A stretch of 64,000 bases of DNA from Eubacteriales bacterium (GCA_045636605.1 JAZTXV010000017.1:62614-126613); one strand, 5' to 3'; positions 3,125 to 24,640 are shown, counted from the first letter of the stretch. Numbers and translations are program-made. The notes: a model not told the origin generated them from the sequence alone.

Positions 3125-5494
3125 TTATTGATACGGGAAGAAATCTCCGTTTTCAAAGAAGCCCTTGACGGTTGTGTCATTGGCTGTCAGAGTTGCCTCT
3201 CTTGCGTTGCCTGTTGATTGGAATACGCCCTTAATAATAGCGCCCGTATGCAAGGTAAGAGTTCCCTCGCCGTTCCAATCTCCAAGAGCCCAGCGTCCCT
3301 CATAGATATCGCCGTTTGTGTATCTCATCACACCTTGACCGTGGGGGAAATTACGCTTATTTCTTTCTCCCTCGTATGAGCCGCTCATGGTTGTATCGAA
3401 CATAACGTAGGTGCTATCGGAGTCGAGTGCGCCACCGTCATTCTCGGAGTCACACACGGACTCATCCTCGCTTGGAGAGTATGTCGGGCAATCGTCACTT
3501 TCAAATGAATCGTCACCCGTCAACGAATCGCAAGATGGGTAATCGTCATTTGATGAGCATATCGGAGCATCCTCGTCGGGAATTTCGATGCCGTCAAGGC
3601 AGTCGAGGTCGTCAAGTGTCGGAATAGTGCGCTTTCTTGGAAGCGGAGCCCTGTTTATCGGCTCGTCACCCTCGATAAATTCACCGTCAACGAGCTGTCC
3701 GTAGCGAACCCTTTCCATATTTTCAAAGAATGTAACGTTAGAGGAATTGTTGCACGATTGCCAGAAAGCAGAGAAGATTGAGCCGTTAACCCAAAGCACA
3801 CCCTTGCCGTGCCAAGCATCGCCTCTCCATTCGCCACGGTAAGCCTTGCCGTTTGCATAAATCATAATGCCCTTGCCGTGTCTGCTTCCGTTTTTCCAGT
3901 TGCCCGAATATACACTGCCGCTTGCGTATGTCATAATACCCATGCCGTGTAGCTCAAGGCCGCAAATTTCACCCTTATATGTGTCGCCCGAGGGATATTT
4001 TACTCTGCCGATAGCCTTGTCATCCTCAATGAAATTTCCCAAAATAACCGTGCCGTCGTGCAAGGTATATCTGCCTATTCCAAAGGGTACATCATCCTTC
4101 CAAGCTCCCTCGTAAACGTCGCCGTCGGAGCTTATATATCTGCCGTAACCGTTAAAGCAGCCGTCAACGAAATCGCCCTCGTATGACGAGCCGTCGCTCC
4201 AAACGTATTTGCCACTACCGTTCGGCTTTCCATTAACGGAATCGCCCTCGTAGTAGCTGCCATCGTCCCAAACGTATTTGACCTTATCGTTCGGCTCATG
4301 GTCAGACTCCTCATAGTCAGACTCCTCGTAGTCAGACTCCTCATAGTCAGACTCCTCGTAGTCGGAATCCTCGTAGTCGGAATCCTCGTAGTCAAGGTCG
4401 TCATAGCCGTCATTTTCGTCGTCAATGTCACGCTTGCTGTCGTCGCCGTCAAGCTCGCACGCATCAACCTCATCGTCCTCGTCTGCGACAGGTGGCTCCT
4501 GCGGATCTGTGGAGTCCGTTGTGTTACAGCAGCCGCAAACTGTTTCTCCGTTAAGAATTTTATTTAAATTAGATGCAATTATCTCGGCATCACGGGAAAA
4601 ATCTGTCGAATTTGAAGGGTTTACCTCGGCTTCCTCGTCAATTTCCTCAATAAGATTGCCGTTTTCCCAAATGCCTCTTTTTACCTCGCCGCTTGCGAGA
4701 AAAAGCTCGCCGTAGCCGTTAAAGTCGCCGTCAACGAACTCACCGACATATGTGCCGGCAGAGGAAACGCTTCTGCCGGTGCCGTTTGCATAGCCGTTTC
4801 TGAATTCACCCTCGTAGTATGAGCCGTCGTCGAAGGTGATTCGTCCAACGCCGTTGGGAATTCCGCCTTCGTCAGAGTCGCCCTCATATGTAAAGCTTGC
4901 CCTTTCGTGCTCACTTAAGCTATCGCTTGAGTCAATAGACGGACATCCAAAGGCACGAATATCATTGTCAGCACGGCTTGAGCGCTTGTCAAACGGCTCA
5001 CGACAGTGGTCGCCCTCAACGAACTCACCGTTCTTGAAGGTACCCTCAAACCTTTCACCGCTTGGCAAAATAAGTCTGCCTATTCCGTGATATACGCCGC
5101 AGCTGAAGCCACCCTCGTAGGTTGTACCGTCAGGCAAGGAAAGCCTGCCCATTCCGTCAAAGCTTCCTTGAACGAATGCGCCCTCGTAGGCTGTGCCGTC
5201 ACCGAGAGTGAGCCTGCCCATTCCGTCGTAAAGACCGTTAAGGAAGCTTCCCTCATAGTTCACACCCGTTTCAAGAGAGAGCTTGCCAAGACCGTTGAAA
5301 TCGCCGTTGACAAAGTTACCCTCATAGGCAGCGCCCCTGGAAATCGCCAAAACGCCATAGCCGTTAAACTCACCGTTCACAAAGCCACCCTCGTAAACGA
5401 GCTCATTAGGCTTTGTAAAAACGCCTCTGCCCTCGGGAAGATTGTTTTGGTTTACGGCTCCGTCGTAGATTCCGTTTTTAAAATCAAATTTCAT
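3125..5494 (-). CDS. MORN-repeat protein with an acidic DYE(D/E)S linker
   Basis: About 20 YEGxxxxGxxxGxG MORN units in two blocks. I prefer the start at M23 of the track ORF (ATG at 5494, AAAGGA RBS). No signal peptide. Confidence 0.85.
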   Translation of the reverse strand: MKFDFKNGIYDGAVNQNNLPEGRGVFTKPNELVYEGGFVNGEFNGYGVLAISRGAAYEGNFVNGDFNGLGKLSLETGVNYEGSFLNGLYDGMGRLTLGDGTAYEGAFVQGSFDGMGRLSLPDGTTYEGGFSCGVYHGIGRLILPSGERFEGTFKNGEFVEGDHCREPFDKRSSRADNDIRAFGCPSIDSSDSLSEHERASFTYEGDSDEGGIPNGVGRITFDDGSYYEGEFRNGYANGTGRSVSSAGTYVGEFVDGDFNGYGELFLASGEVKRGIWENGNLIEEIDEEAEVNPSNSTDFSRDAEIIASNLNKILNGETVCGCCNTTDSTDPQEPPVADEDDEVDACELDGDDSKRDIDDENDGYDDLDYEDSDYEDSDYEESDYEESDYEESDYEESDHEPNDKVKYVWDDGSYYEGDSVNGKPNGSGKYVWSDGSSYEGDFVDGCFNGYGRYISSDGDVYEGAWKDDVPFGIGRYTLHDGTVILGNFIEDDKAIGRVKYPSGDTYKGEICGLELHGMGIMTYASGSVYSGNWKNGSRHGKGIMIYANGKAYRGEWRGDAWHGKGVLWVNGSIFSAFWQSCNNSSNVTFFENMERVRYGQLVDGEFIEGDEPINRAPLPRKRTIPTLDDLDCLDGIEIPDEDAPICSSNDDYPSCDSLTGDDSFESDDCPTYSPSEDESVCDSENDGGALDSDSTYVMFDTTMSGSYEGERNKRNFPHGQGVMRYTNGDIYEGRWALGDWNGEGTLTLHTGAIIKGVFQSTGNAREATLTANDTTVKGFFENGDFFPYQ
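4301..4405 (-). repeat. In-frame 15-bp tandem repeat, 7 units
   Basis: gtcagactcctc(a/g)ta x4, gtcggaatcctcgta x2 and one degenerate unit. Encodes DYEDSDYEDSDYEESDYEESDYEESDYEESD. Confidence 0.9.
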
Positions 5495-18489: not shown

Positions 18490-18582
18490 TGGCGAAGGTG
18501 AGTGGATTCGAACCACCGCGCCATACAAGATGACCTACAGCCTTAGCAGGGCCGCCTCTTCGACCGACTTGAGTACACCTTC
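18490..18582 (-). tRNA. tRNA-Ser (anticodon GCU), class II with a long variable arm, CCA encoded
   Basis: The reverse complement folds by hand. Acceptor GAAGGTG/CACCTTC, 3-bp D stem, anticodon stem CGGCC/GGCTG with loop CTGCTAA, and T arm GGTGG TTCGAAT CCACT. 93 nt. Confidence 0.9.
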
Positions 18583-18649
18583 AAGCGAATGCTGATGCGC
18601 TACTTACTTGGCGCACAGCGCAAACCGTCGTTTGGTAGTTTGCTTTTCA

Positions 18650-18678
18650 ATTATACACAATTTTTATGCCCTTGTCAA
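18650..18678 (-). promoter_or_regulatory. Promoter of tRNA-Ser
   Basis: Minus strand: TTGACA, 17-nt spacer, TGtATAAT. Confidence 0.6.
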
Positions 18679-18740
18679 TACCTTTTTTCTTTTTTATTTT
18701 TTATTTGTTTTATTTTTAACAAGATTTTTTGAAAATACTC

Positions 18741-18769
18741 TTGACTTTTGAAAAATATTGTGATATTAT
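18741..18769 (+). promoter_or_regulatory. Promoter of tRNA-Arg
   Basis: TTGACT, 17-nt spacer, TATTAT. Confidence 0.6.
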
Positions 18770-18789
18770 ATCTTTCGCAACAAGCAAAT

Positions 18790-18865
18790 GCGCCCCTAGC
18801 TCAGCGGATAGAGTGCCCGGCTACGAACCGGTAGGTCGAGAGTTCGAATCTCCCGGGGCGCGCCA
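18790..18865 (+). tRNA. tRNA-Arg (anticodon ACG), CCA encoded
   Basis: Acceptor GCGCCCC/GGGGCGC, D arm GCTC AGCGGATA GAGT, anticodon loop CTACGAA, and T loop TTCGAAT. 76 nt. Confidence 0.92.
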
Positions 18866-18873
18866 TAAAGATA

Positions 18874-18907
18874 AAAGGACAGGTTTTTACCTGTCCTTTA
18901 TCTTTTT
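18874..18907 (+). terminator. Terminator after tRNA-Arg
   Basis: aaaggacagg ttttta cctgtccttt stem followed by atcttttta. Confidence 0.7.
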
Positions 18908-18910
18908 ATG

Positions 18911-19075
18911 TCGCACCCTGTCGCTTCGAACCTCCTTCAAAAACGCAACACGTTTTTGAATAGAGTTCGGATGCGAGCAAAAGGCGTTGAGAATTTATTC
19001 TCATAAGCCGTGCGAAGCACATTACCGTCAGGTAATGCATCTCCTATAAAGCACGCAGTGCTTTCGGGGCGCGCA
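18911..19075 (+). repeat. tRNA-Arg-linked structured repeat, unit A (candidate structured ncRNA or att-type relic)
   Basis: Shares conserved blocks with unit B and has four hairpins. Ends in atctcc...cggggcgcgca, resembling the tRNA-Arg 3' end. Confidence 0.6.
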
Positions 19076-19103
19076 GGACTTGCTCCTGTCTTTTTTGTTT
19101 ATC

Positions 19104-19265
19104 TCGCCCTTGGTTCGATTCGACTCTCCTTCAAGGCTTTGCCTTGAATAGAGTTCGCAAGTCCGCCGAAAGCCGTTGTCTGCTTGCAAGCATAAGGCTC
19201 GGCGTGACTCGTTGCCACAGGCAACGCATCTCCTATACAGTGCATCGCACTGTCGGGGCGCGCCA
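19104..19265 (+). repeat. tRNA-Arg-linked structured repeat, unit B
   Basis: Same architecture as unit A with compensatory hairpin changes. Its last 12 nt, cggggcgcgcca, are identical to the tRNA-Arg 3' end including CCA. Confidence 0.6.
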
Positions 19266-19270
19266 AGAGA

Positions 19271-19308
19271 GACTCAGTTGAACACCTAAGGTTCGCTGAG
19301 TCTTTTTT
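19271..19308 (+). terminator. Hairpin plus T-run after unit B
   Basis: gactcag...ctgagtc stem followed by T6. Confidence 0.6.
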
Positions 19309-19334
19309 ATTTTATTATACCGAATTATACACAC

Positions 19335-19366
19335 AGGACAGAGTTTTTCAACTCTGTCCTTTTTTA
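19335..19366 (+). terminator. Second plus-strand hairpin plus T-run
   Basis: aggacagagt ttttca actctgtcct stem followed by T6. Confidence 0.6.
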
Positions 19367-19384
19367 TTTTGTGCTATAATAATT

Positions 19385-20221
19385 TTATTGAGGCAATTTT
19401 CTGCTTCTGTATTTTTGCGGTGAGACTCCAAGATGCTTCTTAAAGAGTCTGCTGAAAAAGTATTGGTCACTGTACCCAACGTGCTCGCTGATTTGCTTTA
19501 TTGACATATTGGTGCTGTCAAGCATATTTTTTGCAAGCCGAAGCCTTAGCTCGATAATATATTCGTTAGGTGATTTTCCCATTTGATTTTTGAATTTTGT
19601 AAAATACCTTGAACAACTTAGTTTTTCAATTTTTGCAAGATAGGGAATATCAATTTTGTTTGTATAAAAGCTATGTATATATTTGAGTGAAGCTTTTAAT
19701 GGAGAAGTGTTGACTTTATCTAATTCGATTTTAGCAATATAAAGAATGATTTCCTGTAAAATAGACGCACACAATTGAATAGCAAGTGGTTCATTTGATA
19801 AAAATGTGTCAATTAGCTTTTTGCACTTATTGTGCATTTCAACACTAAACTCACTATCAATAATGCAGGGCAAATTATTAAATCCACATTCCGTTAAAAA
19901 TCTATCAGCATATGAGCCTGTAAAGTGTATAGATAAATAATAAGTAGGCGGATTTCCGGCAAATTGGTAATGATATTTTGGCGGAAAAATAACAAAATTT
20001 CCTTTTTTTGCAATATAGGTATTTCCGTCAATTACAATAGATAATTCTCCATTAGTAACGAATGCCAAAAAATAATCGTCTCTGCCGATGGAGCTATATG
20101 TCTCGAATGGTGTTCTAACATCATAATGTCCGGCTGTATTTATAAGCAGGGGATAATCGTTTGAGACCTTGCTGTTAAAATACAATAATTCGTCATCAAT
20201 ATATCGTATAATTTTTGCCAT
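19385..20221 (-). CDS. AraC-family transcriptional regulator (N-terminal cupin-like sensor, C-terminal HTH)
   Basis: The C-terminus ...IKQISEHVGYSDQYFFSRLFKKHLGVSPQKYR is typical of the AraC HTH. Divergent from the 20382 gene. Confidence 0.85.
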   Translation of the reverse strand: MAKIIRYIDDELLYFNSKVSNDYPLLINTAGHYDVRTPFETYSSIGRDDYFLAFVTNGELSIVIDGNTYIAKKGNFVIFPPKYHYQFAGNPPTYYLSIHFTGSYADRFLTECGFNNLPCIIDSEFSVEMHNKCKKLIDTFLSNEPLAIQLCASILQEIILYIAKIELDKVNTSPLKASLKYIHSFYTNKIDIPYLAKIEKLSCSRYFTKFKNQMGKSPNEYIIELRLRLAKNMLDSTNMSIKQISEHVGYSDQYFFSRLFKKHLGVSPQKYRSRKLPQ

Positions 20222-20381
20222 TTTTACCTCTCAATAGTATAAAAATCCATTTTTTAAAATAAGATAATCCATTGCCACGGGACTAAATATATTGTACAAT
20301 AAAATTGGAGAGATGTCAAGTGAATTGAAAACTCCATTCCTATCTATAAACTAAAAACGAATAAATTGTTTTGGAGGAAAT

Positions 20382-23300
20382 ATGAAAAGAAAAATTTTAC
20401 TGTTTTTTGTAACAGCCTTCATTTTCGTGTGCTTGCTTGCGCTTTCTGTCAGCGCTATGTCAGGCTCAGGAACAGAGGCTGACCCTTATGTGGTTGAAAA
20501 TGCAGAGGATTTCGTTTCTATTAAGAATAGCCTTTCGGCTTATTACAGGTTAGATGCAGATATCTCTGTTTCATCAAACGAAGGCGCAATCGTTGAGGGG
20601 CCATTTACAGGCGTTTTTGACGGTAACGGACATACTGTTAATGTAAATATCGTGGGCGCAACAAGTGGCACCAACACATATGATGCACTATTTGGCGTGG
20701 TTGATGGAAACGGCAAAATCAAAAATCTTACTGTAACAGGCGAAATTACCGGCTCAGATAAGGTTGCAGGCGTTGTAGGCAAGCTTGCAGGAAACGCAAA
20801 TGTAGATAACTGCGTAAACTATGCCAAGGTTTCCGGCAGAAAAAATATCGGCGGTATTGCAGGCTTGATTTATTACAGTAATTCAGGCAAAAAAGCTACA
20901 ATTACAAACTGTGTCAATTACGGCTCAATAAATGGCGCAAATCCTATAAAGACGGGACTTGACATTGGCGGTATTGTAGGTTGTATTTGGGAAACGGATA
21001 CATCTATTGTTACTCTTGCAAACTGCTATAATGCAGGTACTATTACCGCAGCGGGCGAAAACTGTGGCGGTATTGTAGGCTTTTCGCAAGCAAAATATTT
21101 TGTAAATTGCTTTAATATTGGCACGGCAAGTGCTACAAGGGGACTTGGCTCAATTATTGGCGCTACCGACGGTAATTATACTCACGATATTAAGGGCTAC
21201 TTTAACGGCACAAATTTAGAGCTTGTAGGCGCAAAATCAGGAACTATCACATCAAGCGGTAACATGATTGAATCAACAGGCGTTGCAATTTATCTTGGCT
21301 CAGGCTCAGGTATTCGTGGCGAGTTCCACTTAAACCAAGAGGTTTACGAAGCATTTTTAACTCTTGTAGGCGGTAAAAATGCTGAATATGGCGCGGTAGT
21401 ATCAACAAAAGATGTTGTTGCAGCGTTAGGTGGCAACATTCTTTCAAAGGAAGCTGAAGAAAGCGGCATGGTTATATTTGCCCCTGCTATGAAGAATGGC
21501 GAAAAGCAATATTTTTATGCTGACCCAGCAAAAGGCGAAGATTACCATTCATACAGATTTGCTTTAACAGGCTTCCCTGACACAAAGCAATCCTATAACC
21601 TTGAATTTGTAATTCTTGGCTATGTTAAGATGACTGATAAAAACGGCAATGATTTGCTACTATGCATAAACACAGTAAAATCCGATAAGCTTGCTGCAAG
21701 CGTTGACGGCACTCCATATAATTCTGTAAATATTGTTCGTGTTGCTGAGATTACAATATCAGACGGCGATTATAAGGATAATGAGGAAATGCTTGGTAAG
21801 CTTGATTACATCGTTAGCAAAAAGGAATACGGCAATAAAATTGAAATTGACGGTATTACAAGCTACGGTCATGCAAACGCTACCTTTACATCACATATTA
21901 GCAGCGGCGATACAGTAGTATTTGAAATTAACAATACATATAGCGATGAGCTTCAGGAATATCAAAATGACCTTGTAGCAAACGGCTATGCTCTTATTAT
22001 GGAAAATCAAATTAACGGAAATTACTTCTATACATACAAGAAGGATAATGCGTTAATTCACATTTCATATTATCCATTAGCAAATGAGGTTAATGTAGCA
22101 AGTGAAACATTAAATAATTTACCTGATAATTTAGCTCAGCCAAGCTACGAAAAGAAGAATAATTCCTCAATTACACAAATTCAACTTGCTGACAATGTGA
22201 CAATTAAGGAAGGCATGTCCTATGTTATTCATTTAGCTGATGGCACATTCTTCATTATCGATGGCGGCTGGTGCTACGATGACTACCTTGAAGCAGATAA
22301 GCTCTACGATATTTTAAAGGAGCTTGCAGGCAAGGATAACGAAATTGTAATCGCAGGCTGGATTTTCACACATTGCCACGGCGACCATATCGGTACGTTT
22401 AACTACTTTGTTGAAAAATACCACGATAGCGTAACGATTAAGGAGCTTCTTTATAACTTCCCATCAGATGATGACATTAGAGCAAGCGAATCAAATTATA
22501 TGCTTAATGACACTAAGCAAAGATATAACTATTTTAGAGAAATGATAGCTACGTACTTAACAGATACAGAAATCGTTAAGGTTCATAGCGGTTATAAATT
22601 CTACTATGCAAATGCAGAAATTGAAATTCTTCAAACCTTTGAGGATTTATATCCAAGCACAGTAGCGAATTATGACTTCAATTCCTCATCTACTATATTT
22701 ACAGTTAAAATTGAAGGACAAAAGATGCTATTTGTGGGCGACGTGTCCGATGTTGGCGCATCACGCCTTAATAAGACATTCGGTAATGCTTTAAAATCCG
22801 ACTTCGTTCAAATAGCTCACCACGGCTTAAATAGCTCAGGCACAATCAAGCAAATGTATATGAATGCAAATGCAACATATGTTTTATATCCTGCGCCAAA
22901 CGAATGGTACAGAAACAATATAAATAACGATGCCAATGCATATATAAACAACAACGAAAGCATTAAGCAAATTTTCGTTTCAGGCTTGCAAACGGTAAAG
23001 CTTTATCTTCCATATGACGGTATGCTTTACGATGGCGAAAGAGTTCCAAAGCCAATCGTTAAAACTGAGGTAGATAGACCTGCAAATACTGTTGAAGTAC
23101 CAGATGCATATTTTGATTTAGATATGACAAACGGTGTAATAACAGATAAAGCAGGCAATGCAACAATAAATGTTACAAACGGCGCAGTTAAGGAAACAAC
23201 AGTAACACATAACGGCGAGGAAAAGACCACAACCGCATTTACTAAGGGCGATGACGGTTATTACTATATGAATGTTAAGTTCAACGAAATTACAACCGAG

Positions 23301-23867
23301 GAGCAAATGAAGAATTTCATAATGGGCTCAACAACCTTTGAAATCTTTTTAAAGCTTGATAAGCTCCCGGGTAGCACCGTAGGACTTATTACATCCTGTA
23401 ACGGTGGTGGCGTAACACTTTACTTGCGTAAACCGGCAGGTGGTCAGCTTAACTTCCAAATCGGCTCAACGAAACCTAATGAAAACGTTGACAGTGGCAA
23501 TAGATATTCTGCGACAGTAGATATGGACGGCTCATATCCTATTGCAGAGGCAGATAAACTGCTACATATCGTTGGTAGTTATGACAGTAAAACAAATATG
23601 ATGAAGCTTTACATAAACGGTATGCTTGTTTCACAGGCAGACTTTGGTAGCGGAAGCTATAATGGTGGCGCAGGCGATGATACCGTAATCGGTATAGGCT
23701 ATAATCCACAGTATAACGAAAACAATGTTGAAGCTATAAGCAAGTACGCAGATTACGAGCTTTACGAGGCTAAAATTTATAACGTAGCCTTAACCGATGA
23801 GCAGGTAGCCCAAGAATATTGGAACTGCATTGATAATTTATTATTTACGGAGGCAGAAAATGAATAA
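20382..23867 (+). CDS. Secreted multidomain protein: GLUG-like repeats, MBL-fold metallo-hydrolase, LamG/concanavalin-like lectin domain
   Basis: Signal peptide. Repeated GG(I/V)(A/V)G...NC(V/Y)N units. THCHGDHIG (HxHxDH) and AHHG motifs. C-terminus LYINGMLV...YEAKIYNVALTDEQV, typical of LamG_3. Confidence 0.75.
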   Translation: MKRKILLFFVTAFIFVCLLALSVSAMSGSGTEADPYVVENAEDFVSIKNSLSAYYRLDADISVSSNEGAIVEGPFTGVFDGNGHTVNVNIVGATSGTNTYDALFGVVDGNGKIKNLTVTGEITGSDKVAGVVGKLAGNANVDNCVNYAKVSGRKNIGGIAGLIYYSNSGKKATITNCVNYGSINGANPIKTGLDIGGIVGCIWETDTSIVTLANCYNAGTITAAGENCGGIVGFSQAKYFVNCFNIGTASATRGLGSIIGATDGNYTHDIKGYFNGTNLELVGAKSGTITSSGNMIESTGVAIYLGSGSGIRGEFHLNQEVYEAFLTLVGGKNAEYGAVVSTKDVVAALGGNILSKEAEESGMVIFAPAMKNGEKQYFYADPAKGEDYHSYRFALTGFPDTKQSYNLEFVILGYVKMTDKNGNDLLLCINTVKSDKLAASVDGTPYNSVNIVRVAEITISDGDYKDNEEMLGKLDYIVSKKEYGNKIEIDGITSYGHANATFTSHISSGDTVVFEINNTYSDELQEYQNDLVANGYALIMENQINGNYFYTYKKDNALIHISYYPLANEVNVASETLNNLPDNLAQPSYEKKNNSSITQIQLADNVTIKEGMSYVIHLADGTFFIIDGGWCYDDYLEADKLYDILKELAGKDNEIVIAGWIFTHCHGDHIGTFNYFVEKYHDSVTIKELLYNFPSDDDIRASESNYMLNDTKQRYNYFREMIATYLTDTEIVKVHSGYKFYYANAEIEILQTFEDLYPSTVANYDFNSSSTIFTVKIEGQKMLFVGDVSDVGASRLNKTFGNALKSDFVQIAHHGLNSSGTIKQMYMNANATYVLYPAPNEWYRNNINNDANAYINNNESIKQIFVSGLQTVKLYLPYDGMLYDGERVPKPIVKTEVDRPANTVEVPDAYFDLDMTNGVITDKAGNATINVTNGAVKETTVTHNGEEKTTTAFTKGDDGYYYMNVKFNEITTEEQMKNFIMGSTTFEIFLKLDKLPGSTVGLITSCNGGGVTLYLRKPAGGQLNFQIGSTKPNENVDSGNRYSATVDMDGSYPIAEADKLLHIVGSYDSKTNMMKLYINGMLVSQADFGSGSYNGGAGDDTVIGIGYNPQYNENNVEAISKYADYELYEAKIYNVALTDEQVAQEYWNCIDNLLFTEAENE

Positions 23868-24018
23868 ATACGTATCCCCTGAAATAGAAATACTAAACGT
23901 TCATAGTGACGACGTAATTATGGCATCAAATGAAGCGGCAGTTACCTACGGCGCTCTTGAGGGCGTTGATGATGAAAATAGCAAGTCCGCAATTTTCAAT
24001 GTAAGTTTTTGGTTATAA
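23860..24018 (+). CDS. Small acidic hypothetical protein (52 aa), translationally coupled
   Basis: GGAGG RBS 6 nt upstream of the ATG at 23860. The ATG overlaps the last 8 nt of the upstream gene. Sequence MNKYVSPEIEILNVHSDDVIMASNEAAVTYGALEGVDDENSKSAIFNVSFWL. Confidence 0.4.
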   Translation: MNKYVSPEIEILNVHSDDVIMASNEAAVTYGALEGVDDENSKSAIFNVSFWL

Positions 24019-24032
24019 TACTAAAATAAACG

Positions 24033-24287
24033 ATGAAAAAACTCATATTATTTTTAACCATGATTATCGTCATAGGACTTATGTCCTGTGGCGGTAACGG
24101 TGCAGATACCGATATAATCATTGATACAAGCACCGACACAACCGTTGACACATCTACCGATACTGAAAATTCCGATTTAAACATGGACTCAGATAATAGC
24201 GATAATAACGGCGGAAACAACGATAATTCCCCTGAGGATAACGACAACGGTGCAAACGATGATTTGTGGACGGACAATAAGCAATAA
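24033..24287 (+). CDS. Small acidic lipoprotein (D/T/N-rich, low complexity)
   Basis: Lipobox MKKLILFLTMIIVIGLMSC|GG. No clear RBS. Confidence 0.5.
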   Translation: MKKLILFLTMIIVIGLMSCGGNGADTDIIIDTSTDTTVDTSTDTENSDLNMDSDNSDNNGGNNDNSPEDNDNGANDDLWTDNKQ

Positions 24288-24331
24288 AAAATATGCAGAC
24301 AAGCAAAAAGCAAGTAAGATGATATAATGAT

Positions 24332-24366
24332 GGTAGACACTAAAAAAGCAGTGTCTACCATTTTTG
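24332..24366 (+). terminator. Rho-independent terminator
   Basis: ggtagacac...gtgtctacc stem followed by atttttg. Confidence 0.7.
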
Positions 24367-24399
24367 TATATACAAAAAGCCCCTCAACCTACTGGTAAG

Positions 24400-24515
24400 G
24401 AGCACACAATATTTCCAAATATATTAAACAGACAATTTAATTCAGACAAGCCTTTACAAAAGATTGTTACCGACGTTACATACATTAAATTTCATGGTAA
24501 GTCTTACTATCTTGT
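24400..24515 (+). pseudogene. IS3-family transposase (OrfB) fragment
   Basis: FPNILNRQFNSDKPLQKIVTDVTYIKFHGKSYYL matches the conserved PNLLxRxF...P(N)xxWvTDiTYi block at the start of the IS3 integrase core. The rest of the gene is absent. Confidence 0.6.
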
Positions 24516-24582
24516 TTATTCAAATGTTTATTTGAGTTTGTTTTTCAAAAAATGCACCCAATCGGGTGTCTTTTCTGTTTAT

Positions 24583-24640
24583 CACGCCCTTGGTTCGATT
24601 CGACTCTCCTTCAAAGCACACGGTGCTTTCGGGGCGCACC
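24583..24640 (+). repeat. tRNA-Arg-linked structured repeat, mini unit C (internally deleted)
   Basis: Its 5' 32 nt are identical to unit B. They are joined directly to a terminal hairpin aaagcac acg gtgcttt and cggggcgcacc. Confidence 0.6.

Follow-up and report, generated by a model that had tools for sequence, protein, structure and literature searches.

Candidate RtT-like pseudo-tRNA modules repeated behind tRNA-Arg and tRNA-Ser genes in uncultured Clostridia

Directly behind, and co-oriented with, a tRNA-Arg(ACG) gene and its terminator in an Eubacteriales bacterium (GCA_045636605.1, JAZTXV010000017.1:62614-126613; a stretch of 64,000 nucleotides, here called the window), two structured repeats of about 165 nucleotides (nt), units A and B, follow one another, and a shortened copy, unit C, lies ~5.3 kb further downstream. 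We propose, at a probability of roughly 0.55, that these units are RtT-like pseudo-tRNA trailer modules, named for RtT of E. coli, that they are probably processed read-through RNAs, and that the tRNA-end segments repeated within them also drive turnover of the arrays and capture of genomic islands. An earlier note on this DNA had placed units A and B at coordinates which we confirm, had pointed to a unit C, and had offered three readings of them: an undescribed tRNA-linked structured RNA, attachment-site (att) relics of integrating elements, or a mobile element. The first of these fits the anatomy best, given conservation by covariation, location on the tRNA's strand and an NCCA tail, but the design is not undescribed, as RtT has the same layout.

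Every module is preceded by a '...CCA plus intrinsic terminator' segment and followed by a terminator of its own. It carries a copy of the upstream tRNA's T-stem 5' strand and half of the T-loop, next an insert of ~66 nt that holds helix P3 and hairpins HP2 and HP3, and then the tRNA's last 18 nt; this end copy spans mid T-loop to CCA, and in most copies of the type found behind tRNA-Arg it is interrupted by hairpin HP4. The whole fold is closed by helix P1, formed between a 5' strand and the tRNA-end copy, which leaves the NCCA-like tail. The parts lie as follows:

18790-18865 (+), tRNA-Arg(ACG), called by ARAGORN and Rfam; T-arm gagag-ttcgaat-ctccc, 3' end ggggcgc-g-cca
18911-19075 (+), unit A, structured repeat, the first after terminator T1
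18912-18920 (+), unit A, 5' strand of P1, cgcaccctg
18927-18934 (+), unit A, 5' strand of P2, cgaacctc
18936-18960 (+), unit A, HP1
18961-18969 (+), unit A, copy of the T-stem 5' strand and half T-loop, tagagttcg
18970-19036 (+), unit A, inner module, holding HP2 (18989-19002) and HP3 (19021-19036)
19039-19044 (+), unit A, atctcc
19048-19064 (+), unit A, HP4
19065-19074 (+), unit A, acceptor 3' copy, cggggcgcgc
19104-19265 (+), unit B, structured repeat, the second
19105-19110 (+), unit B, 5' strand of P1, cgccct
19121-19127 (+), unit B, 5' strand of P2, cgactct
19130-19148 (+), unit B, HP1
19149-19157 (+), unit B, tagagttcg
19158-19225 (+), unit B, inner module, with HP3 CGTTGCCACAGGCAACG at 19210-19226
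19228-19233 (+), unit B, atctcc
19237-19253 (+), unit B, HP4
19254-19265 (+), unit B, acceptor end copy cggggcgcgcca
24583-24639 (+), unit C, short copy; covariance model score 34 bits, E = 1e-9

Aligned with each other, units A and B share 76% mean column identity, with their conserved blocks intact and the intervening hairpins replaced. All of the blocks that the earlier note had named are present, two of them (TTGAATAGAGTTCG and GCATCTCCTATA) occurring exactly twice each in the 64 kb, once per unit, and HP1 to HP4 as well as a GGC/GCC helix lie where it had put them, differing between the units by two-sided changes. At the terminus of unit B, atctcc, 20 nt and cggggcgcgcca do reproduce the last 18 nt of tRNA-Arg, split by HP4; the companion claim, that unit A retains 11 of the 12 final nt, holds only if one C is deleted, and position by position the count is 10 of 12. 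The closing helix had been understated, as P1 pairing is found in both units, between cgcaccctg (18912-18920) and cggggcgcg (19065-19073) in A, and between cgccct (19105-19110) and ggggcg (19255-19260) in B. Unit C consists of a B-like 5' part joined at CTCCTTCAA straight onto an A-like HP4, followed by cggggcgcac; the join resembles what loss of the segment separating a unit's two CTCCT(TC/AT)AA blocks would leave. A covariance model scan of the window found no unit copy beyond A, B and C, and the window holds no further copy of a tRNA-Arg or tRNA-Ser 3' end. Neither ARAGORN nor the Rfam tRNA and tmRNA models recognise the units, and Tandem Repeats Finder does not call the A/B pair, because there are just two copies and these are too divergent. 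Two other interpretations were set aside: protein coding, given that stops in unit A interrupt the frame open in B and that the compensatory hairpin changes alter residues; and the inner module as a degenerate tRNA-Ser(GCT) body, for which the alignments (AGTaCtCAAG..AGGC..CTGCT), though suggestive, were not significant (z <= 3) and which we do not claim.

Selection on structure, which the earlier note had read from the pattern of hairpin changes, stands on the strength of covariation. Minimum-free-energy z-scores are -6.0 for unit A and -5.3 for unit B, with none of 200 shuffles equally stable, and in an RNAalifold consensus of seven units P1 encloses P2 with HP1, P3 with HP2, and HP3, while HP4 abuts the 3' strand of P1. 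Covariation was assessed over seven distinct units from six genomes, using as controls the same structure with pairing partners slid, plus 500 shuffles. Cells were paired in 91.7% of cases compared with 31-43% in the slid controls, 19 of 47 pairs had changed on both sides compared with 2-6, and no shuffle attained the observed pairing values. Over 19 distinct units, the cells comprise 681 Watson-Crick, 40 G.U, 15 A.C and 34 other combinations, counts that favour the tRNA's (sense) strand. HP1, HP3 and HP4 each occur in three to seven sequence variants, yet are nearly all Watson-Crick, with very few G.U pairs. Minimum-free-energy folds give the same architecture for the units found behind tRNA-Ser.

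The 19 distinct units were gathered with nhmmer and a covariance model, about 17 of them beyond those of the window; these further copies all derive from uncultured gut and rumen Clostridia. Every copy is co-oriented behind a tRNA 3' end and terminator, with units behind tRNA-Arg(ACG) in the window and at loci L001, L002, L071 and L085, behind tRNA-Ser(GCT) at L069 and L082, and behind tRNA relics at L081 and L083; array length differs among the loci. Among 185,579 species genomes the exact full-length pattern occurs in two, at one locus each, both directly after tRNA-Arg(ACG) and a terminator in metagenome-assembled genomes of uncultured Clostridia. As units of the B type happen to be open in one sense and one antisense frame (the latter at 19099-19266, minus strand, in unit B), a protein catalogue was also searched with unit translations, which returned 16 spurious open reading frames (ORFs; P0121-P0136) of 68-166 amino acids (aa) from metagenome gene callers, some running from tRNA-Arg sequence into units, whose contigs gave loci L069-L085. 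No Rfam family matches the units, whether at the gathering threshold or even at E <= 10, and blastn found no match to them in phage and plasmid collections. Scans of viral contigs for the inner module gave nothing save one isolated 18-mer, which is unsupported by the longer pattern and was taken as chance. Looser block patterns matched 37 and 24 loci in metagenome and viral contigs, none unit-like by blastn (E <= 1e-3), and these 61 are likewise attributed to chance because they lack such similarity. A search for orthologous loci through the neighbouring GH5 gene gained none, as synteny is not kept.

The blocks copied into the units match the identity of the upstream tRNA, Arg or Ser. Arg-type units carry cgccc, the T-stem block tAGAGTTCG ((T)AGAGTTCG) and ATCTCC ... 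CGGGGCGCGCCA. Ser-type units (L069, L082) carry GAAGTTCG ... ATCTTCTCTCCCACGCCA; in these, gtgggag equals the acceptor 5' strand of tRNA-Ser(GCT), aatGAAGTTCG (GAAGTTCG) its T-stem 5' strand with half of the T-loop, and gcATCTTCTCT.CACGCCA (ATCTTCTCT.CACGCCA), which lacks HP4, its sequence from mid T-loop to CCA. The end copy is contiguous in Ser-type units (atcttctcttcacgcca) and also in the first unit of L071 (atctcccgagggcgcg). The 5' strand of P2 compensates by type, with ctc/gag in Arg and ctt/aag in Ser, and at L001 both the tRNA-Arg and its unit have cagggc, where the others have cggggc. Both types share the placement of HP1, the gtcgattcgac block and an inner module of ~66 nt, which is 88% identical between unit B and the first unit of L069; measured from the T-stem copy ((T)AGAGTTCG or GAAGTTCG) to the end copy, the insert spans 66-69 nt. 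The tracking is imperfect, in that the L002 unit does not follow the T-stem variant of its tRNA and that the L081 units, though of the Arg type, stand behind the relic of a different tRNA.

Knowledge of RtT dates from the sequencing of the tyrT locus, and thousands of E. coli genomes now carry its annotation. Within our reference locus (L087; E. coli K-12, NC_000913.3 1285800-1287800), Rfam calls four RtT copies (RF00391) at tyrT-tyrV, with scores of 133-137 bits. Their closing helix pairs GGGGAAGG with CCTTCCCC, as does the Rfam consensus structure; the T-stem 5' strand and half T-loop of tRNA-Tyr, AAGGTTCGA (cttcgaccAAGGTTCGA), are followed by an insert of 65 nt, including the hairpin CGTTGCC(G/A)CAGGCAACG, and then by AATCCTTCCCCCACCACCA, the last 19 nt of tRNA-Tyr from mid T-loop. 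RtT and the units are thus alike in lying in tandem behind, and co-oriented with, a tRNA gene; in ending with the tRNA's last 18-19 nt, mid T-loop through CCA; in bearing the T-stem 5' strand and half T-loop ~65 nt upstream of this end copy; in an insert that carries the 7-bp hairpin CGTTGCC-NCA-GGCAACG (the copy in the tyrT-tyrV spacer is identical to HP3 of unit B at 17 of 17 positions); and in a 5' strand which closes the fold onto the tRNA-end copy, according to the Rfam consensus and minimum-free-energy folds. Variation in RtT copy number between strains parallels the variable Clostridia arrays: by megablast, E. coli genomes have from 1 to 9 RtT places, ~700 of 5426 complete genomes have none, and 18 places are on plasmids. 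The two differ in the tRNAs involved (Tyr as opposed to Arg or Ser) and in phylum, and the units, unlike RtT, have an intrinsic terminator between every unit and the extra hairpins HP1 and HP4; moreover, their T-stem copy pairs with the 5' partner P2, whereas that of RtT pairs with a segment inside the insert. The RF00391 covariance model (gathering threshold 45 bits) finds no match in the window at 18600-19500 or in L069 at 1150-1560, even at E <= 10, nor does the units' model hit RtT, and no similarity beyond the hairpin was found. Because the likeness in sequence stops at this hairpin and the models are mutually blind, we file the units as RtT-like in design, and not as members of RF00391. 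For release of RtT RNA in E. coli we draw on annotation and literature, in which rttR is a 171-nt RNA ending exactly at the mimic's CCA, and is said to arise by processing from the tyrT operon (PMC3318445; bioRxiv 10.1101/2024.07.17.603846).

We suggest that the Clostridia modules would be transcribed by read-through from the strong tRNA promoter, and that tRNA end-processing machinery would cut out discrete RNAs of ~165-190 nt, by analogy with the 171-nt rtT RNA; excision of this kind is proposed because each module ends like a tRNA, with a closing helix, CCA and a terminator. An RNA reading fits the gene-like layout of the units (closing helix, NCCA tail, own terminator) and the E. coli precedent. 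At the level of DNA, the repeated segments of tRNA end and terminator may let arrays grow, shrink and reshuffle through unequal or homologous recombination, and may offer extra attachment sites, so that islands specific for tRNA 3' ends could insert between units. The tRNA-like domain of tmRNA and trailer small RNAs of the 3'ETS-leuZ type likewise have an acceptor-like helix with an NCCA end and a transcribed position in a tRNA trailer; the units differ from them in having no T-loop or anticodon arm, and in forming repeated arrays.

Several points weigh against the proposal. The units have no promoter of their own and, unlike RtT, an intrinsic terminator stands ahead of each, so that their expression would rest on read-through; the tRNA-Arg promoter is the sole strong promoter-like site upstream of the units on their strand, and a weak 9/12 match lies inside unit B (19212-19241). 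The near-absence of G.U pairs from HP1, HP3 and HP4 would be compatible with folding of the DNA as well. Truncated or mosaic copies are common (unit C, the third units of L085 and L081, and the second of L071), and at L081 Arg-type units sit behind a non-cognate tRNA relic. The Rfam RtT model is blind to the units even at E <= 10, and the likeness to RtT, which in sequence amounts to one hairpin, may reflect convergence or shared origin. Finally, to our knowledge the function of RtT itself has never been explained.

The main rival, which we regard as possible if somewhat improbable, dispenses with RNA altogether: successive elements targeting the tRNA 3' end, both integrase-bearing islands and integrase-less, cis-mobilizable cassettes, would each have displaced a copy of the tRNA end and its terminator, leaving stacked att relics. 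At the level of loci, the corresponding reading of the earlier note is partly borne out by cargo between units, by flanks that copy tRNA 3' ends and, at one locus, by a large serine recombinase beside such a copy. The order at L071 is tRNA-Arg, terminator, first and second units, terminator, cassette, 'cttGGCGCGCCA' with the same terminator, third unit, terminator, and genes for AbiH and Peptidase_U49. The cassette, comprising a helix-turn-helix (HTH) protein and ORFs of 146 and 32 aa, is bordered on both sides by GGCGCGCCA, the left border being the CCA end of a unit and not that of the tRNA, and is flanked by terminator and unit at 100% identity over ~140 nt, the first and third units being identical over about that length. 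Both L076 (674-1060, minus strand) and L078 have a permuted junction that runs from the 32-aa gene, through a GGCGCGCCA relic with terminator, a hybrid of the third and first units and then the second unit, to the HTH gene, which suggests that the L071 cassette is tandemly duplicated or circular in some populations. At L083, a large serine recombinase gene is followed ~270 nt on by '...ttcccacgcca', a relic of a tRNA-Ser 3' end, and then by a terminator and units. In the window, the ~5.3-kb cargo between units B and C is bracketed by a 51-nt direct repeat, 94% identical (19087-19137 and 24567-24617). To these may be added the relic of a third tRNA that precedes the L081 units, the absence of unit promoters, and the tandem islands at ssrA of Dehalococcoides, which are bounded by tRNA-like 3' repeats, arise by serine recombinase insertion mid T-loop, and include some integrase-less cassettes (PMC3146451).

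Other observations sit less easily with relics alone, which leave covarying non-tRNA helices and interleaved blocks unexplained. At least five helices covary in sequence unrelated to tRNA, and tRNA-specific blocks alternate with others that the Arg and Ser types have in common, a pattern that one insertion or a simple stack cannot yield. Since element-side flanks at the L083 and L071 relics are unlike units, the units there are placed on the chromosomal side; and RtT, of the same design, yields an RNA. As looked for in att sites, the inserted DNA of L071 and L083 has a directly repeated tRNA 3' end at its far border; the window has only the 51-nt repeat of the unit's 5' part around its cargo, with no extra tRNA-end copy. 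Nor is the sequence between repeats free of structural constraint, as its helices covary across genomes. The earlier note had held that units standing consistently at the borders of integrase-bearing islands would favour relics; a serine recombinase does lie near the L083 units, but the large serine recombinase was found in L083 and L084 only. No integrase was otherwise seen in the ORFs around the units (14-27 kb of the window, most of the 64 kb being unscreened) or among the called genes of other loci, and no tyrosine or integron-type integrase was found in any locus, or beside any array, that we examined. The unit loci resemble the Dehalococcoides islands in having cargo between copies, a serine recombinase beside one copy (L083) and some integrase-less cassettes. 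However, the Dehalococcoides repeats are bare ~20-bp sequences, whereas the copies described here are embedded in a conserved, covarying fold of ~165 nt, in which the T-stem 5' strand is copied as well and the acceptor copy is base-paired, and many units follow one another directly, no cargo intervening. Taken with the Dehalococcoides precedent, the evidence from L071, L076, L078 and L083 indicates that the arrays are real hot spots of integration and recombination, in which the tRNA-end copies that units contain seem to serve as sites of attachment, a role that the RtT-like proposal also allows.

Further sequences of interest accompany these loci. The relic at L081 (~4045-4125, minus strand) is a ~80-nt 3' part of a type-II tRNA, with the anticodon loop cuCGAaa and 3' end atcctgcgcca; it has no matching 5' acceptor strand and no ARAGORN call, and a terminator and non-cognate Arg-type units lie behind it. 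At L082 (~640-740) and L083 (~2260-2330; both minus strand), 'ATATCATC' with a 4-5 bp hairpin forms short runs of three or four repeats, which separate the tRNA-Ser terminator from the units. Stacked assemblies of a tRNA-Ser 3' end copy, ttctacatttcttttc, the hairpin gggagggcaaacccctccc and ctacaa occur at L082 (~200-440), L083 (2335-2370) and L071 (5110-5140; all minus strand), and in the second unit of L071 a related 'ggatgtcgaggacaccatcccctacaa' takes the place of the 5' part. A recurring junction, CTC(T)CCC(G/A)AGGGCGCG | (A/G)T(G/T)ATGTT(C/A)GCAC...CTATATTG(T)GAGAG, joins a copy of the T-stem 3' strand and acceptor of tRNA-Arg to conserved foreign sequence, and possibly marks where a further family of integrating elements has its left end. 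Its sites are:

L001, ~4540-4590 (-), AGGGCGCG/CTATATTG junction
L071, ~5180-5222 (-), AGGGCGCG/CTATATTG junction
L081, ~3825-3875 (-), AGGGCGCG/CTATATTG junction
L085, 1448-1470 (+), AGGGCGCG/CTATATTG junction
L085, 1735-1785 (+), AGGGCGCG/CTATATTG junction

Genes of defence-like appearance lie just past the arrays, according to precomputed Pfam matches: AbiH with a zinc finger and Peptidase_U49 at L071 (959-3205, minus strand), and an HTH-PIN-ankyrin protein, a radical SAM protein and a 584-aa protein with a faint UPRTase match at L080/L081 (780-4656).

It is unlikely that a small, non-autonomous mobile element, entering T-loop-coding DNA or sites behind terminators, is what the unit or its inner module of ~66 nt represents, and this third reading of the earlier note found little support. 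The module does occur in both Arg and Ser contexts at 88% identity, placed exactly between the two halves of the T-loop copy, every unit begins right behind the T-run of a terminator, and unit C stands 5 kb off beside a truncated transposase-like ORF. Nevertheless, the 64 kb hold three copies only, all in one locus, and the full-length pattern recurs at a single locus in each of just two species genomes, directly after tRNA-Arg in both. Phage, plasmid and viral collections gave no real matches; there are no terminal inverted repeats, no target duplications and no consistently nearby transposase; homology between Arg-type and Ser-type units reaches past the module into HP1 and the gtcgattcgac block; and all the copies found lie behind a tRNA 3' end or a relic of one. 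Ideas involving IS200/IS605-type elements, the bridge RNA of IS110 or homing by CRISPR-associated transposons (CAST) were dropped, as no locus has a matching gene. Last, it is highly improbable that a tRNA gene here anchors an integron-like cassette array whose recombination sites, the units, act as folded single-stranded DNA. As in integron attC sites, structure is kept while sequence varies, a variable palindrome (HP1) stands between conserved inverted boxes (ttcgaacctc / gagttcg), and units occur between genes (in L071 and the window); the hairpins, moreover, are nearly all Watson-Crick. Against this, no integron-type integrase such as IntI stands beside any array, most units are tandem with no gene between them, the boxes presumably do not fit the attC R/L consensus, and a unit is a fold of several arms with copied tRNA segments, not a single imperfect hairpin.

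The remaining features of the window around tRNA-Arg are:

18490-18582 (-), tRNA-Ser(GCT), called by ARAGORN and Rfam; no units behind the gene in the window, units behind it in relatives
18650-18678 (-), tRNA-Ser(GCT) promoter, TTGACA-17-TATAAT, 12/12 consensus matches; divergent from the tRNA-Arg promoter
18741-18769 (+), tRNA-Arg promoter, TTGACT-17-TATTAT, extended TG, 10/12
18874-18909 (+), terminator T1, 11-bp GGACAGG/CCTGTCC hairpin (18874-18899) and a T-run ending TTTAT
19073-19098 (+), terminator T2, caggacttgctcctg and a T-run; overlaps the final bases of unit A
19271-19308 (+), terminator T3, long hairpin gactcag...ctgagtc and a T-run; homologous to the one behind the final unit of L071
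19335-19366 (+), terminator T4, GGACAG/CTGTCC type like T1; no unit behind
19385-24545 (no strand assigned), cargo between units B and C, with the three ORFs that follow
19385-20221 (-), AraC-family regulator, in the cargo
20382-23867 (+), 1161-aa secreted protein with a metallo-beta-lactamase fold, in the cargo
~24397-24540 (+), transposase-like ORF fragment, FPNILNRQFNSDKPLQKIVTDVTYIKFHGKSYYLVYSNV, ending right before the terminator of unit C
24554-24582 (+), terminator ahead of unit C, gcaccc/gggtgt and tcttttctgtttat; homologous to terminators ahead of units in L071 and L001

Behind T4 (19335-19375, plus strand) comes 'ttttattttgtgc', similar to the beginning of a unit, the unit body being absent; this terminator could double as that of the convergent AraC-type gene. 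The fragment FPNILNRQFNSDKPLQKIVTDVTYIKFHGKSYYLVYSNV (24397-24540) has no Pfam match, and resembles what we take to be the stretch just before the catalytic core of IS3-family transposases. A motif of 17-25 nt, GGCGGTATTGCAGGCTT, recurs inside the 1161-aa gene (20847-21082 and 21849-21865, plus strand), which probably reflects repeated protein modules.

In practical terms, the units pollute metagenome protein catalogues as spurious ORFs. As RtT-like modules, they would constitute a second, independent family with the RtT layout, located in Clostridia, attached to two other tRNAs, rich in covariation, and with a mimic that follows the neighbouring tRNA; that an independent family has the same layout argues that the design is not an accident of E. 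coli, and the Clostridia units supply comparative data on which of its parts are selected. They also link two topics that are usually treated apart, namely the RNAs of tRNA trailers, and tRNA 3' ends as hot spots of integration. A bolder and decidedly tentative idea, of which we remain doubtful, is that RtT and the units are two members of a widespread, unrecognised class of pseudo-tRNAs in which a structured insert splits the T-loop; distant phyla would keep them behind tRNA genes, under selection for a match to the cognate tRNA in acceptor and T-stem. If this were true, members of the class might mimic tRNAs, working perhaps as decoys for, or regulators of, the processing of tRNA ends or the sensing of uncharged tRNA; or they might protect the essential tRNA gene, as landing pads to which integrating elements are diverted.

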